Below, one piece after another: positions 1-5,225 of a DNA stretch of 5,225 bases. A program made the position numbers and the translations under genes. Within the stretch, counting starts at the first letter, position 1. Each line of letters starts with the position of its first letter. The DNA comes from a virus (Duplodnaviria > Heunggongvirae > Uroviricota > Caudoviricetes): the IMG/VR virus record IMGVR_UViG_648276652_000011, positions 1 through 5,225 of that record. One strand, given 5' to 3'. Below the pieces are notes generated by a model. It was given only the letters and a program-made list of their open reading frames with translations. It did no database searches and was not told the origin of the DNA.

Positions 1-739
<739 letters not shown>

Positions 740-762
740 GTGCGGTTTTACCGCATACCAAT

Positions 763-785
763 AACGCTTCACTCGAGGCGTTTTT
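763..785 (+). terminator. Putative hairpin plus T5 in the ea10-cIII intergenic region (attenuator or terminator-like)
   Basis: cgcttc (765-770) pairs with gaggcg (775-780) including one G-U pair; loop actc; followed by ttttt (781-785). It lies 17 nt upstream of the cIII SD aggag (802-806). Confidence 0.35.
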
Positions 786-811
786 CGTTATGTATAAATA
801 AGGAGCACACC

Positions 812-976
812 ATGCAATATGCCATTGCAGGGTGGCCTGTTGCTGGCTGCCCTTCCGAATCTTTACTTGAACGAATCACCCGTAAATTACGTGACGGATG
901 GAAACGCCTTATCGACATACTTAATCAGCCAGGAGTCCCAAAGAATGGATCAAACACTTATGGCTATCCAGACTAA
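812..976 (+). CDS. cIII: CIII, inhibitor of FtsH-mediated CII degradation (54 aa)
   Basis: [54 protein letters not shown] matches lambda CIII as I recall it. SD aggag at 802-806, 5 nt before ATG 812. The ORF-track start at 740 is an upstream extension. Confidence 0.9.
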   Translation: MQYAIAGWPVAGCPSESLLERITRKLRDGWKRLIDILNQPGVPKNGSNTYGYPD

Positions 977-1088
977 ATTCACTATCGCCACTTTTATTGG
1001 CGATGAAAAGATGTTTCGTGAAGCCGTCGACGCTTATAAAAAATGGATATTAATGCTGAAACTGAGATCAAGCAAAAGCATTCACTAA
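945..1088 (+). CDS. kil: Kil, host cell-division (FtsZ) inhibitor (47 aa)
   Basis: [47 protein letters not shown]. The start overlaps the cIII 3' end by 32 bp and the 3' end overlaps the long gam start, as in lambda. SD aggag at 931-935. Confidence 0.9.
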
Positions 1089-1459
1089 CCCCCTTTCCTG
1101 TTTTCCTAATCAGCCTGGCATTTCGCGGGCGATATTTTCACAGCTATTTCAGGAGTTCAGCCATGAACGCTTATTACATTCAGGATCGTCTTGAGGCTCA
1201 GAGCTGGGCGCGTCACTACCAGCAGATCGCCCGTGAAGAGAAAGAGGCAGAACTGGCAGACGACATGGAAAAAGGCCTGCCCCAGCACCTGTTTGAATCG
1301 CTATGCATCGATCATTTGCAACGCCACGGGGCCAGCAAAAAAGCCATTACCCGTGCATTTGATGACGATGTTGAGTTTCAGGAGCGCATGGCGGAACACA
1401 TCCGGTACATGGTTGAAACCATTGCTCACCACCAGGTTGATATTGATTCAGAGGTATAA
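1043..1459 (+). CDS. gam: Gam, RecBCD/SbcCD nuclease inhibitor (138-aa long form; GamS from the internal ATG at 1163)
   Basis: The translation matches lambda Gam as recalled ([23 protein letters not shown]... [10 protein letters not shown]). The internal ATG at 1163 ([13 protein letters not shown]...) has a strong SD aggag at 1151-1155 and gives the 98-aa GamS form. Confidence 0.95.
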
Positions 1460-1464
1460 AACGG

Positions 1465-2250
1465 ATGAGTACAGCACTCGCAACGCTGGCTGGGAAGCTG
1501 GCTGAACGAGTCGGCATGGATTCTGTCGACCCACAGGAACTGATCACTACTCTTCGCCAGACGGCATTTAAAGGTGATGCCAGCGATGCGCAGTTCATCG
1601 CATTGTTGATCGTCGCCAACCAGTACGGCCTTAATCCGTGGACGAAAGAAATTTACGCCTTCCCTGACAAGCAGAACGGCATCGTTCCGGTGGTGGGCGT
1701 TGATGGCTGGTCCCGCATCATCAATGAAAACCAGCAGTTTGATGGCATGGACTTTGAGCAGGACAATGAATCCTGCACATGCCGGATTTACCGCAAGGAC
1801 CGTAATCATCCGATCTGCGTTACCGAGTGGATGGATGAATGCCGCCGCGAACCATTCAAAACCCGCGAAGGCAGAGAAATCACCGGACCGTGGCAGTCGC
1901 ATCCCAAACGGATGTTACGGCATAAAGCCATGATTCAGTGTGCCCGTCTGGCCTTCGGATTTGCGGGTATCTATGACAAGGATGAAGCCGAGCGCATTGT
2001 CGAAAATACCGCATACACTGCAGAACGTCAGCCGGAACGCGACATCACTCCGGTTAACGATGAAACCATGCAGGAGATTAACACTCTGCTGATCGCCCTG
2101 GATAAAACATGGGATGACGACTTATTGCCGCTCTGTTCCCAGATATTTCGCCGCGACATTCGCGCATCGTCAGAACTGACACAGGCCGAAGCAGTGAAAG
2201 CTCTTGGATTCCTGAAACAGAAAGCCACTGAGCAGAAGGTGGCAGCATGA
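1465..2250 (+). CDS. bet: Bet (Red-beta) single-strand annealing recombinase (261 aa)
   Basis: [64 protein letters not shown]... I recognise this as lambda Red-beta; it starts 5 nt after the gam stop. Confidence 0.97.
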
Positions 2251-2927
2251 CACCGGACATTATCCTGCAGCGTACCGGGATCGACGTGAGAGCTGTCGAA
2301 CAGGGGGATCATGCGTGGCACAAATTACGGCTCGGCGTCATCACCGCTTCAGAAGTTCACAATGTGATAGCAAAACCCCGCTCCGGAAAGAAATGGCCTG
2401 ACATGAAAATGTCCTACTTCCACACCCTGCTGGCTGAGGTTTGCACCGGTGTGGCTCCGGAAGTTAATGCTAAGGCGCTGGCCTGGGGAAAACAGTACGA
2501 GAACGACGCCAGAACCCTGTTTGAATTCACTTCCGGCGTGAATGTTACTGAATCCCCGATCATCTATCGCGACGAAAGTATGCGCACCGCCTGCTCTCCC
2601 GATGGTTTATGCAGTGACGGCAACGGCCTTGAACTGAAATGCCCGTTTACCTCCCGGGATTTCATGAAGTTCCGGCTCGGTGGTTTCGAGGCCATAAAAT
2701 CGGCTTACATGGCCCAGGTGCAGTACAGCATGTGGGTGACGCGAAAAGATGCCTGGTACTTTGCCAACTATGACCCGCGTATGAAGCGTGAAGGCCTGCA
2801 TTATGTCGTGATTGAGCGGAATGAAAAGTACATGGCGAATTTTGACGAGATGGTGCCGGAGTTCATCGAAAAAATGGACGTGGCACTGGCTGAAATTGGT
2901 TTTGTATTTGGGGAGCAATGGCGATGA
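2247..2927 (+). CDS. exo: Lambda exonuclease Exo (Red-alpha), 5'-3' dsDNA exonuclease (226 aa)
   Basis: [64 protein letters not shown]... I recognise this as lambda Exo. ATGA start/stop overlap with bet (2247-2250). Confidence 0.97.
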
Positions 2928-3106
2928 AGCATCCTCACGATAATATCCGGGTAGGCGCGATCACTTTCGTCTACTCCGTTACAAAGCGAGGCTGGGTATT
3001 TCCCGGCCTTCCTGTTATCCGAAATCCCCTGAAAGCACAGCGACTGGCTGAGGAGATAAATAATAAACGGGGGGCTGTATGCACAAAGCATCTCCTGTTG
3101 AGTTAA
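2924..3106 (+). CDS. orf60a: Lambda Orf60a-like small protein (60 aa)
   Basis: The second ATG (2924) overlaps the exo stop as ATGA and has the SD gggag (2911-2915) at 8-nt spacing. It gives 60 codons, with the same size and position as lambda orf60a. The ORF-track start at 2918 is too close to the SD. Confidence 0.75.
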
Positions 3107-3270
3107 GAACGTGTATCGAGATGGCACATAGCCTCGCTCAAATTGGAGTCAGGTTTGTGCCAATACCAGTAGAAACAGACGAAGAATTTCATACGTTAGC
3201 CGCATCCCTTTCACAAAAGCTGGAAATGATGGTGGCGAAAGCAGAAGCAGATGAGAGAGACCAGGTATGA
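3079..3270 (+). CDS. orf63: Lambda Orf63-like small protein (63 aa)
   Basis: The 63-codon ORF overlaps the orf60a 3' end by 28 bp, as I recall for the orf63/orf60a arrangement in lambda. SD gggggg at 3069-3074. Confidence 0.8.
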   Translation: MHKASPVELRTCIEMAHSLAQIGVRFVPIPVETDEEFHTLAASLSQKLEMMVAKAEADERDQV

Positions 3271-3350
3271 CAACCACTGAATGCATTTTTCTGGCAGCGG
3301 GCTTCATATTATGTGTGCTTATGCTTGCCGACATGGGGCTTGTTCAGTGA
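3267..3350 (+). CDS. Candidate 27-aa hydrophobic (single-TM-like) peptide, MTTTECIFLAAGFILCVLMLADMGLVQ; speculative
   Basis: The ATG overlaps the orf63 stop as ATGA (3267-3270), with purine-rich gagagag 8-9 nt upstream. The stop TGA (3348-3350) overlaps a GTG (3347) in the frame of the next ORF. It is below the ORF-track size cutoff and is read by eye only. Confidence 0.3.
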   Translation: MTTTECIFLAAGFILCVLMLADMGLVQ

Positions 3351-3562
3351 CACCTCAGCAAGAAAACGCCCTTCGCAGCATTGCCCGTCAGGCTAATTCT
3401 GAAATCAAAAAAGCCAGACAGCAGTTTCCGGATAAAAACGTCGATGACATTTGCCGTAGCGTACTAAAGAAGCACCGCGAAACGGTAACGCTGATGGGAT
3501 TCACACCGACTCATTTAAGCCTGGCGATCGGCATGTTAAACGGCGTCTTTAAGGAACGGTGA
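3281..3562 (+). CDS. Hypothetical small protein (93 aa from ATG 3281; alternatively 71 aa from GTG 3347)
   Basis: Open frame with a helical-looking, charged C-terminal 70 aa (TPQQENALRSIARQANSEIKKARQQF...). There is no SD before ATG 3281, but a G-rich SD (gggg, 3336-3339) lies 7 nt before GTG 3347. The N-terminal 22 aa are Cys/His-rich (CAYACRHGAC). The start is uncertain. Confidence 0.5.
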   Translation: MHFSGSGLHIMCAYACRHGACSVTPQQENALRSIARQANSEIKKARQQFPDKNVDDICRSVLKKHRETVTLMGFTPTHLSLAIGMLNGVFKER

Positions 3563-3582
3563 ACATGAAAAGCAAAATCATC

Positions 3583-3608
3583 AGGGAGCTACAGGCTCCT
3601 TTTTTATT
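3583..3608 (+). terminator. Rho-independent terminator-like hairpin
   Basis: Stem ggagc (3585-3589) pairs with gctcc (3595-3599), loop tacag, followed by tttttt (3600-3605). Flanking pairs extend the stem to 7 bp. Confidence 0.6.
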
Positions 3609-3660
3609 ATTCGCATTTACCCTCAAGCGTATTAACCAACAATTCAGGGATTAATGAAAG

Positions 3661-3882
3661 ATGGCAGACATCATTGATTCAGCATCAGAAATCGAAGAAT
3701 TACAGCGCAATACAGCAATAAAAATGCGTCGTCTGAACTACCAGACTGTATCCGCAACTCATTGTTGTGAATGTGGCGATCCGATAGATGAGCGAAGACG
3801 CCTGGCCGTTCAGGGTTGTCGGACTTGTGCAAGTTGCCAGGAAGATCTGGAGCTTATCAGTAAACAGAGAGGTTCGAAGTGA
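3661..3882 (+). CDS. TraR/DksA-family C4 zinc-finger protein (73 aa), lambda Orf73-like RNA polymerase-binding regulator
   Basis: The 73-aa protein has CxxC...CxxC spacing (C-E-C-G ... C-R-T-C-A-S-C) near the C-terminus, and its size is typical of TraR-like proteins. Confidence 0.8.
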   Translation: MADIIDSASEIEELQRNTAIKMRRLNYQTVSATHCCECGDPIDERRRLAVQGCRTCASCQEDLELISKQRGSK

Positions 3883-4250
3883 GCGAAATTAACTCTCAGG
3901 CACTGCGTGAAGCGGCAGAGCAGGCAATGCATGACAACTGGGGATTTGACGCGGACCTTTTCCATGAGCTGGTAACACCATCGATTGTGCTGGCACTGCT
4001 GGATGAACGGGAAAGAAACCAGCAATACGTCAAACGCCGCGACAATGAGAACGAGGATATTGCACTAACGGTAGGGAGGCTGCGCGTTGAGCTGGAAGGC
4101 AAACACAGGCGCATTACTGAGCTGACAATGTGGATTAAGCGACTGAGTTCCTCTCTCAAAAACGCAAAACCAGACAGCAAGTTGCCGGATGACGCAATGA
4201 TCTGGCTAAATAATGAAGGGCTTACCAGTATAGAGGATATTTTACGATGA
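3879..4250 (+). CDS. Ea22-like (ead/Ea22 family) N-terminal-domain protein (123 aa), GTG start
   Basis: N-terminus MSEINSQALREAAEQAMHDNWGFDADLF carries the QALREAAE signature I associate with Ea22-family proteins. The GTG start overlaps the upstream stop (GTGA, 3879-3882); SD agagagg at 3866-3872. Confidence 0.65.
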   Translation: MSEINSQALREAAEQAMHDNWGFDADLFHELVTPSIVLALLDERERNQQYVKRRDNENEDIALTVGRLRVELEGKHRRITELTMWIKRLSSSLKNAKPDSKLPDDAMIWLNNEGLTSIEDILR

Positions 4251-4894
4251 GCACTTTTACCATGGAATGGCTACAAAATACGATTACCAGTATTGAGTCA
4301 GCACGAGATGAAATGCCATTCGGACTCGACAACGATCAAGCACACATGCTTACAGCATTTAAAATCGCTCTCGCCTCACTGGAACGCGAGCGGGTTCGCC
4401 ACGAGCATGCCAAATGGTCTGACTCCACATTTGGCTGCGTTGGCCCCATTGGTCCACTGAAACACCTCTCAAAAGAGGCTCTGGAAGCCGCAGCCGAACC
4501 TGACGATCTCAGCGAGTGGGCTGATATGCAGTTCCTGTTGTGGGATGCACAGCGCCGTGCTGGTATCAGTGATGCTGAAATTACCGCTGCTATGGAAAAT
4601 AAATTGAAGATCAACATGGAGCGCCAGTGGCCTGAACCAAAAGATGGTGAGCCTCGTTTGCACATTAAAGAACCCGGCAACTCTCCGGTAACTCCGGATG
4701 GTTGGATAAGCTGTAGTGAGCTAATGCCAGATGATGGTCAGCACGTAATTATTTTATGTGATGGCGCATTCGTTCTTTATGCGCAATATCGAGACGGAGA
4801 GTTTTTCGATATTGTCCGCAATGGTGATGAATTTTTCGAAACACAGAGTCGCAATGTAACCGACTGGATGCAACTACCAGAACCTCCTCTTTGA
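4247..4894 (+). CDS. Phage protein with DUF550-like (MazG-like NTP pyrophosphohydrolase-type) N-terminal region and DUF551-like C-terminal domain (215 aa)
   Basis: ATGA overlap with the upstream gene; SD gagga at 4233-4237. The C-terminus ...VTDWMQLPEPPL resembles the DUF551 signature. The N-terminal region has acidic helices KEALEAAAE and SEWAD plus NKLKINMERQ, resembling MazG-type metal-binding motifs. Confidence 0.7.
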   Translation: MSTFTMEWLQNTITSIESARDEMPFGLDNDQAHMLTAFKIALASLERERVRHEHAKWSDSTFGCVGPIGPLKHLSKEALEAAAEPDDLSEWADMQFLLWDAQRRAGISDAEITAAMENKLKINMERQWPEPKDGEPRLHIKEPGNSPVTPDGWISCSELMPDDGQHVIILCDGAFVLYAQYRDGEFFDIVRNGDEFFETQSRNVTDWMQLPEPPL

Positions 4895-4996
4895 TAGCTA
4901 AGCTTATACATATCTTTTACATCAGCAATCTATTGTTAATCTCCAATCAATGTTACGTTGTCATCTCTCTCATGCTTTGGAGGTAGTGATATGTCT

Positions 4997-5225
4997 TGGA
5001 TTTGCCCCTATATTTCCAGACACCTGTTATCACTTAACCCATTACTGGCTTGCTGCCGTAGATATTCCCGTGGCGAGCGATAACCCAGTGCACTATGCGG
5101 ATGCCATTCGTTATAATGCTCGAACGCCTCTGCAAGGTTCTTTGCTGCCGTTAACCCGTCTGGTTTGGGCATGACACTGATGTAGTCACGCTTTATCGTT
5201 TTCACGAAGCTCTCTGCTATGTCCG
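4997..5225 (-). mobile_element. IS2-like element (IS3 family), terminal inverted repeat and 3' portion; partial, continues off the right edge
   Basis: The + strand reads tggatttgcccctatatttccagaca from 4997, which is the reverse complement of the IS2 end (...TCTGGAAATATAGGGGCAAATCCA) as I recall it. The adjacent transposase C-terminus matches IS2. Confidence 0.88.
5008..5225 (-). CDS. insD: IS2-like transposase OrfB (InsD), C-terminal 72 codons (partial)
   Basis: The - strand encodes ...[71 protein letters not shown] with stop at rc 5008-5010. The frame is open to the window edge. The 'M' in the ORF track is an internal GTG. Confidence 0.9.

Follow-up and report, generated by a model that had tools for sequence, protein, structure and literature searches.

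The gene and its setting

The window examined here, which is the whole stretch of 5,225 nucleotides (nt) at positions 1 to 5,225 of IMG/VR virus record IMGVR_UViG_648276652_000011 (Caudoviricetes), is the early-left (pL) arm of a lambda-like prophage, oriented along pL transcription. Our subject is the EaA-family open reading frame (ORF) at 4247..4894 (+), taken from a mechanical ORF list and identified by Pfam, which is complete, starts with ATG and encodes 215 amino acids (aa) plus stop. Its product matches PF04447 (formerly DUF550) at aa 51–145 (142.7 bits against a cut-off of 23, E = 4.5e-42, profile positions 2–96 of 97) and PF04448 (DUF551) at aa 152–214 (64.6 bits against a cut-off of 22, E = 1.5e-17, profile positions 1–67 of 68). 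The former corresponds to a MazG-like, all-alpha nucleoside triphosphate (NTP) pyrophosphohydrolase core encoded by 4397..4681 (+), and the latter is encoded by 4700..4888 (+); an N-terminal module of aa 1–45 (4247..4381, +) precedes both. A polypeptide carrying DUF550 and then DUF551, encoded in the early-left exo-xis/ea region, characterizes the EaA family of phage P22, and it is this arrangement that is found at 4247–4894. A preliminary description of the DNA had likened the C-terminal ~60 aa to DUF551, which the PF04448 match bears out (the quoted peptide is present), and had proposed profile searches against DUF550, DUF551 and MazG; the first two families matched, but the canonical MazG and MazG-like profiles did not, nor did any other Pfam family at E <= 0.1, so that the relation to MazG is one of fold and active site only. 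The translational coupling that had been described is present in the sequence, where the start ATG (4247–4249) overlaps the TGA (4248–4250) of the upstream ORF 3879..4250 as ATGA, in the context TTTTACGATGAGC; a Shine-Dalgarno-like AGAGGA at 4232..4237 (+), read from the sequence, lies 9 nt before this ATG, within the upstream Ea22-like ORF.

Upstream, the pL operon comprises a DUF2528 gene (371–739), kil (within 819–1088), gam (1043–1459), bet (1465–2250), exo (2247–2927), an orf60a-like DUF1317 gene (2918–3106), an orf63-like DUF1382 gene (3079–3270) and an orf61-like ORF (3281–3562). These are followed by a TraR/DksA-type zinc-finger gene resembling lambda orf73 (3661..3882, +; PF01258, E = 1.9e-09; phrog_54; TIGR02419), two genes upstream of 4247–4894, and by the Ead/Ea22-like gene of 123 aa (3879..4250, +; PF13935, E = 7.1e-21) that overlaps it. 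This synteny agrees with the distal pL operon position assigned to the gene earlier. In the intact relative prophage of NZ_AP022107, located at the lambda attachment site beside ybhC, four genes come after the DUF550–DUF551 gene, namely eag, a hypothetical gene, xis and int; the gene 4247–4894 belongs to the classical exo-xis, or ‘ea’, region. In the window, the place of these four genes is occupied by an IS3-family insertion sequence (IS), whose end (4999..5225, −; terminus TG / GATTTGCCCCTATATTTCC) includes the transposase C-terminus at 5008–5205 (−) and disrupts eag, of which the first 8 nt (4991..4998, +; ATG at 4991) are recognized by alignment with the intact prophage. Because the insertion replaces the eag–xis–int side, the prophage carrying 4247–4894 may be unable to excise. 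An IS start at 4976–4984, hinted at by megablast, was rejected, as comparison with two other copies of the element puts the terminus at 4997–4999.

Three further observations concern the immediate upstream region. A terminator-like stem-loop with a T-run (3583–3601, +) separates the orf61-like ORF from the TraR-like gene; were it functional, the distal genes, including 4247–4894, would depend on N-mediated antitermination. The Ea22-like gene at 3879–4250 is short (123 aa), lacking the lambda-type C-terminal domain. In an otherwise near-identical intact prophage, the Ea22-like gene (7681–7875) is annotated as a truncated pseudogene, and there is no ATGA coupling to the DUF550 gene.

Family, fold and predicted active site

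The protein is widespread and already annotated. The identical sequence (P0001) occurs on 558 public contigs, and RefSeq WP_000103027.1 is the same protein (99.8% DNA identity), named ‘dATP/dGTP pyrophosphohydrolase domain-containing protein’; ‘dATP/dGTP pyrophosphohydrolase’ is likewise the current Pfam name of PF04447, and relatives in lambdoid, Shiga-toxin (Stx) and Klebsiella phage records are called ‘EaA protein’ or ‘DUF550 domain-containing protein’. Family, domain architecture and name are thus all on public record for the exact sequence, nothing here is new in kind, and the novelty suggested in the preliminary description was overstated. NCBIfam gave no match for the 215-aa protein, and PHROGs matched it only to families of ‘unknown function’. 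At least a partial DNA match is present in 2191 of 5426 complete Escherichia coli genomes, Shiga-toxin phages included. An exhaustive HMMER scan with aa 40–150 as the query recovered 3428 representatives of 50%-identity clusters at E <= 1e-3, 511 of them at E <= 1e-30; the best 150 of the 3428 are 74–98% identical to the query within the domain, with total lengths of 111–477 aa. Virulent T1-like Klebsiella phages also carry DUF550, and in Mycobacterium phage TeardropMSU (gp107–gp108, 1130–1821) a minimal DUF550 protein of 105 aa is encoded directly after a DUF4406 gene, shortly before a gene for a DnaQ-like exonuclease and with no PurZ annotated nearby. DUF4406 is a nucleoside deoxyribosyltransferase-like family. 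The presence of DUF550 in the T1-like phages and its gene context in the mycobacteriophage suggest that it serves nucleotide metabolism in replicating phages generally.

An AlphaFold2 monomer model built from 145 homologues (mean predicted local distance difference test score, pLDDT, 83.9) contains helices 6–22, 29–62, 68–83, 88–104 and 109–125, followed by a linker of low confidence and a beta domain of five strands, and the DUF550 core has the all-alpha fold of MazG/HisE NTP pyrophosphatases. Its structural neighbours are Sulfolobus MazG (1vmg, 7.5), a MazG-related protein of Thermotoga (2yxh, 7.1), iMazG (2q5z, 7.0), M. tuberculosis MazG (7yh5, 6.8) and HisE (1yvw, 6.8), with 4qgp, 6j22, 3c90, 1w2y, 3cra, 2gta and 2a3q of the same superfamily ranking lower. 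Several of these, such as M. tuberculosis MazG and mouse 2a3q (RS21-C6/DCTPP1), are sanitizing enzymes. In Foldseek, the first match was 7ODY, the structure of MazZ from cyanophage S-2L, with a probability of 1.0 and a target template-modelling (TM) score of 0.71, yet with an E-value of only 0.1. Sequence-only searches of the Protein Data Bank gave non-significant matches to MazZ (E = 0.53 with the protein and 0.25 with the 145-sequence profile), and the link to MazZ is therefore made by fold and by alignment of the catalytic residues.

The residues predicted to form the active site are aligned with those of MazZ identically in the HMMER alignment to 7ODY and in a seven-way alignment of the query with P22 EaA, Klebsiella phage Sweeny gp20, Flyfo siphovirus gp24, TeardropMSU gp108, the DUF550 part of the phage SH-Ab 15497 protein, and MazZ. 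The predicted metal-binding motif E77-x2-E80-x9-E90-x2-D93 (4475..4525, +), of the MazG type ‘ExxE...ExxD’, corresponds to E35, E38, E50 and D53 of MazZ, which coordinate three catalytic Mn2+ ions in 7ODY (PMC8342488). The predicted substrate-pocket residues D100, K119, N123, R126 and W128 (4544..4630, +) correspond to D60, K76, N80, R83 and W85, of which D60 lies 3.0 Å from the guanine 2-amino group and R83 contacts the beta-phosphate (PMC8342488). All nine residues of the query are invariant in the seven-way alignment; among the 145 cluster representatives, E77, E80, E90, D93, K119, R126 and W128 are invariant, with conservation of 90% or more for D100 and N123. The protein accordingly possesses the four acidic ligands together with the arginine counterpart of the residue contacting the leaving phosphates (R126). 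The conservation of the acidic residues foreseen in the preliminary description is borne out by this comparison. The helix peptides quoted there, KEALEAAAE (aa 76–84), SEWADMQFLLWD (aa 89–100) and NKLKINMERQ (aa 118–127), also exist and coincide with predicted helices 68–83, 88–104 and 109–125, but they lie in the middle of the protein (aa 76–127), not in its N-terminal region as had been stated.

Module exchange and the DUF551 domain

Comparison with P22 EaA and the Flyfo phage gives a ratio of nonsynonymous to synonymous substitution rates (dN/dS) of ~0.08–0.09 in the sense frame, the proportion of differing sites being 0.73–0.87 for synonymous sites (pS), which are saturated, and 0.15–0.22 for nonsynonymous sites (pN). 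This ratio and the Pfam E-values put the gene well outside what chance would produce. The DUF550 core is strongly constrained, whereas its flanks are freely exchanged: in the 145 representatives, the core is preceded by 1–315 aa and followed by 0–260 aa. DUF551 is present in only 22 of these 145, so that the DUF550–DUF551 architecture marks a specific subgroup; a Lar restriction-alleviation domain occurs in two of the 145 and an Ea22 domain in one. The N-terminal 45–50 aa have no Pfam match. The N-terminal module (M-x-T-x-T-K-E-W-L-Q ... I-P-F-G-L-D ... A-L-A-S-L-E), which covers predicted helix 6–22 and the start of helix 29–62 with a pLDDT of 83–94, matches phrog_5117, phrog_660 and phrog_3323, and occurs in 16 of the 145, where it invariably stands at the very start of the protein, also when the core lies 100–266 aa downstream.

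Several observations link these modules to the neighbouring gene. Of the phrog_660 profile, one part covers the first 56 aa of the DUF550 protein and another the last 88 aa of its upstream Ea22-like neighbour; phrog_924 likewise matches both proteins, at aa 98–214 of the former and aa 77–123 of the latter; and a 370-aa Ea22–DUF550–DUF551 fusion exists (P0065). Within the ea region, modules recombine freely, as if drawn from a common pool.

P22 EaA (Eaa; SwissProt Q03544 according to the annotation of Klebsiella phage Sweeny) is the named protein with which the query is best compared. Both have an N-terminal module, DUF550 and DUF551 in this order, and both genes occupy the early-left ea, or exo-xis, place, with 63% identity over 79% of the query (tblastn) and 78% identity in the DUF550 core. 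P22 EaA differs, however, in its length of 317 aa, in a different and longer N-terminal part, and in an insert of ~75 aa between DUF550 and DUF551. In the literature searched, there was neither an established function for P22 EaA or its relatives nor any experiment on EaA, DUF550 or MazG in the exo-xis region; the Gifsy-1 paper merely lists an eaa homologue, inside a strain-specific region.

The DUF551 domain, predicted to be a five-stranded small beta-barrel, has strongly conserved ends (SPVxPDGWISCSERMP ... VTHWMPLPEPP) enclosing a middle whose sequence and length are both hypervariable. A scaffold with a variable surface would show such a pattern, and so would conserved recombination junctions. 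A profile search found 6086 DUF551 proteins, the top 120 of which are nearly all stand-alone E. coli or Salmonella prophage proteins of 75–146 aa; among these 120 are stand-alone proteins ~90% identical to the DUF551 of the query. The query retains W153, M160, P161, W207 and P211 of the terminal motifs but is atypical at three positions, with Leu159, Asp206 and Gln209 in place of the Arg, His and Pro that occur in 111, 110 and 106 of 112 relatives, respectively, so that two near-invariant residues, the Arg and the His, are replaced. In the 120 closest DUF550–DUF551 proteins, the residues at 159/206/209 are L/D/Q in 40, R/H/P in 34 and R/D/P in 13, besides other combinations, and variation of this kind is confined to DUF550-fused DUF551 domains. 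This distribution suggests that the constraint on DUF551, or its binding function, is altered or relaxed in the fused context.

The loss of the two near-invariant residues, the IS damage in the adjacent eag and the heavy shuffling of modules might be taken to mean that 4247–4894 is a functionless mosaic or a decaying remnant of a defective prophage, or even that the real gene is the antisense ORF of 114 aa at 4336–4680 (−), which overlaps the DUF550 core and has a similar counterpart in P22 (2479–2787, −). We regard this as scarcely credible, given that 558 contigs carry the intact ORF with an identical product, that the catalytic residues are all invariant, and that the sense frame shows a dN/dS of ~0.08–0.09 against a background of saturated synonymous change. 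On the same dN/dS, the antisense ORF was judged unlikely to be a gene; nothing independent speaks for it, and the simplest explanation makes it a by-product of strong conservation in the sense frame.

Other DUF551 proteins of prophage early or accessory regions, namely YfdS of CPS-53, the C-terminal domain of the Ea22 V2 variant of Stx phages, and orf4 of VT2-Sakai (PMC10834534, PMC4776307), share PF04448 with its conserved WISCSERMP and THWMPLPEPP ends, but are without DUF550, unlike the query. VT2-Sakai orf4 had been considered as a distant DUF550–DUF551 relative, which was rejected because it has DUF551 only; an ASCH-like C-terminus for it was dropped, being unsupported by Pfam. Deletion of YfdS renders E. 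coli sensitive to H2O2, as cited in PMC4776307 and PMC10834534. This phenotype, the fact that DNA damage precedes prophage induction, and the presence of 7yh5, 2q5z and 2a3q among the structural neighbours could together be read as signs of a house-cleaning enzyme for non-canonical or damaged purine deoxynucleoside triphosphates (dNTPs; 8-oxo-dGTP, dITP, 2-oxo-dATP), protecting replicating phage DNA, for example after oxidative or SOS stress. We think such a role quite unlikely, however, since the assayed relatives use canonical dGTP and dATP, and since the link to oxidative stress concerns proteins with DUF551 only, not DUF550.

Candidate substrates and biological role

The conserved constellation allows the catalytic chemistry, namely the conversion of an NTP to the nucleoside monophosphate and pyrophosphate, to be transferred by analogy to the 4247–4894 protein with good confidence, whereas the substrate is not transferable. 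The assayed enzyme containing PF04447 is that of Acinetobacter phage SH-Ab 15497 (also termed MazZ-2; Zhou et al. 2021, cited in PMC8342488 and PMC12884076), which shares with the query this domain, the four acidic ligands and the K/N/R/W pocket, but carries DUF5664 (PF18909) at the N-terminus where the query instead has DUF551 at the C-terminus. SH-Ab 15497 replaces adenine in its DNA by 2-aminoadenine, and its DUF5664–DUF550 protein is described, in PMC12884076 and PMC8342488, as converting dATP and dGTP to the monophosphates and pyrophosphate, thereby removing dATP and supplying dGMP to PurZ; the gene (32865–34022) sits directly between purZ and datZ. Several points weigh against carrying a purine dNTP specificity over to the query. 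The SH-Ab 15497 protein scores only 33.4 bits to PF04447, compared with 142.7 for the query, and contains the additional DUF5664; in BLASTP, the two are 40% identical over 42 residues only. DUF5664 alone is active on dATP, dUTP and dGTP in phage Wayne (PMC12884076), and the authors of the MazZ study report that the base-binding residues differ between the DUF550-type subfamily and MazZ-1. It is because the SH-Ab 15497 protein is peripheral and two-domain, because DUF5664 is independently active and because the base-binding residues differ that the substrate cannot be transferred. The DUF550 proteins of phages with 2-aminoadenine (Z) genomes also form their own monophyletic group (PMC12884076). 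A possible Rosetta-stone link, in which gp107 of TeardropMSU would be a DUF5664 protein, was rejected, as Pfam identifies gp107 as DUF4406.

The name ‘dATP/dGTP pyrophosphohydrolase’, now borne by thousands of enterobacterial prophage proteins, derives from this peripheral, two-domain member, and the lesson for annotation is one of caution: a functional name has been moved from a protein with a second, independently active hydrolase domain. MazZ itself, a (d)GTP-specific MazG-like NTP pyrophosphatase, is only 21–30% identical to the query, and is a stand-alone enzyme (a 111-residue chain in 7ODY) belonging to a Z cluster, whereas the query is a multi-module protein. The 16.6-kb locus of the intact relative, like the window, encodes neither PurZ nor DatZ. 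Since the association with PurZ is lacking, 4247–4894 should not be filed as a functional MazZ, and the physiological rationale known for MazZ is inapplicable.

Within the same enzyme superfamily, cyanophage MazG acts on dGTP and dCTP (PMC6850273) and Atd1 on (p)ppGpp (10.1101/2022.06.09.495361); what they have in common with the query is the general idea of a phage reshaping the nucleotide or alarmone pools of its host. Atd1, a phage MazG-like enzyme, hydrolyses ppGpp and protects against TIR-STING toxicity (10.1101/2022.06.09.495361), and an Atd1-like or E. coli MazG-like (p)ppGpp pyrophosphohydrolase might be supposed for the query as well, which would lower the alarmone early and so bias the lysis–lysogeny decision or blunt alarmone-dependent abortive infection, alongside the TraR-like Orf73. 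As a guanine nucleotide, (p)ppGpp would fit a pocket retaining the counterpart of MazZ D60, and a functional link to the TraR/DksA-type gene two genes upstream is conceivable; lambda Orf73 reprograms RNA polymerase and transcription without ppGpp and raises the burst size (PMC9239242). The exo-xis region, for its part, influences the lysogeny decision (PMC10834534). Against an alarmone hydrolase, cyanophage MazG does not hydrolyse magic-spot nucleotides (PMC6850273), the only assayed DUF550 relatives (the SH-Ab 15497 enzyme and MazZ) use dNTPs or NTPs, and PADLOC (E <= 0.01) and the other libraries gave no match linking the protein to a known defence or counter-defence component. A (p)ppGpp hydrolase is therefore unlikely in our judgement.

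The same absence of a defence-related profile bears on the suggestion that the enzyme destroys an immune signalling nucleotide, be it a cyclic oligonucleotide or, like the dITP of the Kongming system, a signal of the NTP type, which we consider very improbable despite the location of the gene in a variable accessory region. The bacterial immune messenger dITP is a purine dNTP chemically between dATP and dGTP (10.1101/2024.12.20.629578), and an enzyme taking both of these could plausibly take it; yet Kongming is triggered by phage deoxynucleotide kinases (10.1101/2024.12.20.629578), none of which was seen in the window or in the 16.6-kb relative locus. As to the cyclic oligonucleotides raised in the preliminary description, these contain phosphodiester bonds only, whereas by established enzymology MazG-type enzymes cut the pyrophosphate bond of NTPs, so that such hydrolysis would be a misfit with the chemistry of the class. 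Apart from this speculation and the overstated novelty, the earlier MazG-like/DUF551 reading is supported.

We favour, as the probable explanation, an EaA-family accessory protein made of three shuffled modules, with a catalytically competent MazG-like purine (d)NTP pyrophosphohydrolase core and a DUF551 adaptor, acting as a dispensable modulator of purine pools. In the predicted mechanism, the central module (aa ~46–145), as an all-alpha MazG/HisE-type nucleoside triphosphate pyrophosphohydrolase, would assemble as a dimer or tetramer, with active sites where the chains meet, and hold Mg2+ or Mn2+ through E77, E80, E90 and D93, both by analogy with MazZ, and by a multi-metal mechanism of the MazG type would cleave the alpha–beta bond of a purine (d)NTP to yield the monophosphate and pyrophosphate. 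The likeliest substrate would be dGTP/GTP, with or without dATP, the purine edge being read by D100 and the leaving phosphates stabilized by R126. DUF551 would be a non-catalytic, small Tudor/SH3-like beta-barrel, most likely serving as a portable binding adaptor between the enzyme and some partner from the host or the phage, and the N-terminal 45 aa, which are helical and common to many ea-region proteins, would be a family-specific module. Expression would be expected from pL early after infection or induction, with the gene silent in the repressed lysogen, and the enzyme would then modulate purine nucleotide pools in early phage development without being indispensable to it.

More speculatively, the enterobacterial EaA-type enzymes could be guanine-nucleotide pyrophosphohydrolases in a wider sense (dGTP/GTP, (p)ppGpp or a dITP-type signal), which DUF551 delivers to the replication initiation apparatus or to RNA polymerase, forming with Ea22 and the TraR-like Orf73 a module that seizes stringent or replication control and tips the balance between lysis and lysogeny; in that case, the target would be recognized by the hypervariable middle of DUF551, and diversifying pressure would act on this surface. 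We offer this as a long shot. The replication initiation apparatus as a target of DUF551 is hinted at by the multicopy phenotype of yfdQRS.

The sole demonstrated role of the DUF550 core is in phages making 2-aminoadenine DNA. Its role in ordinary lambdoid, P22-like, T1-like and mycobacterial phages bears on the influence of the exo-xis region on prophage induction, and hence on the release of Shiga toxin.

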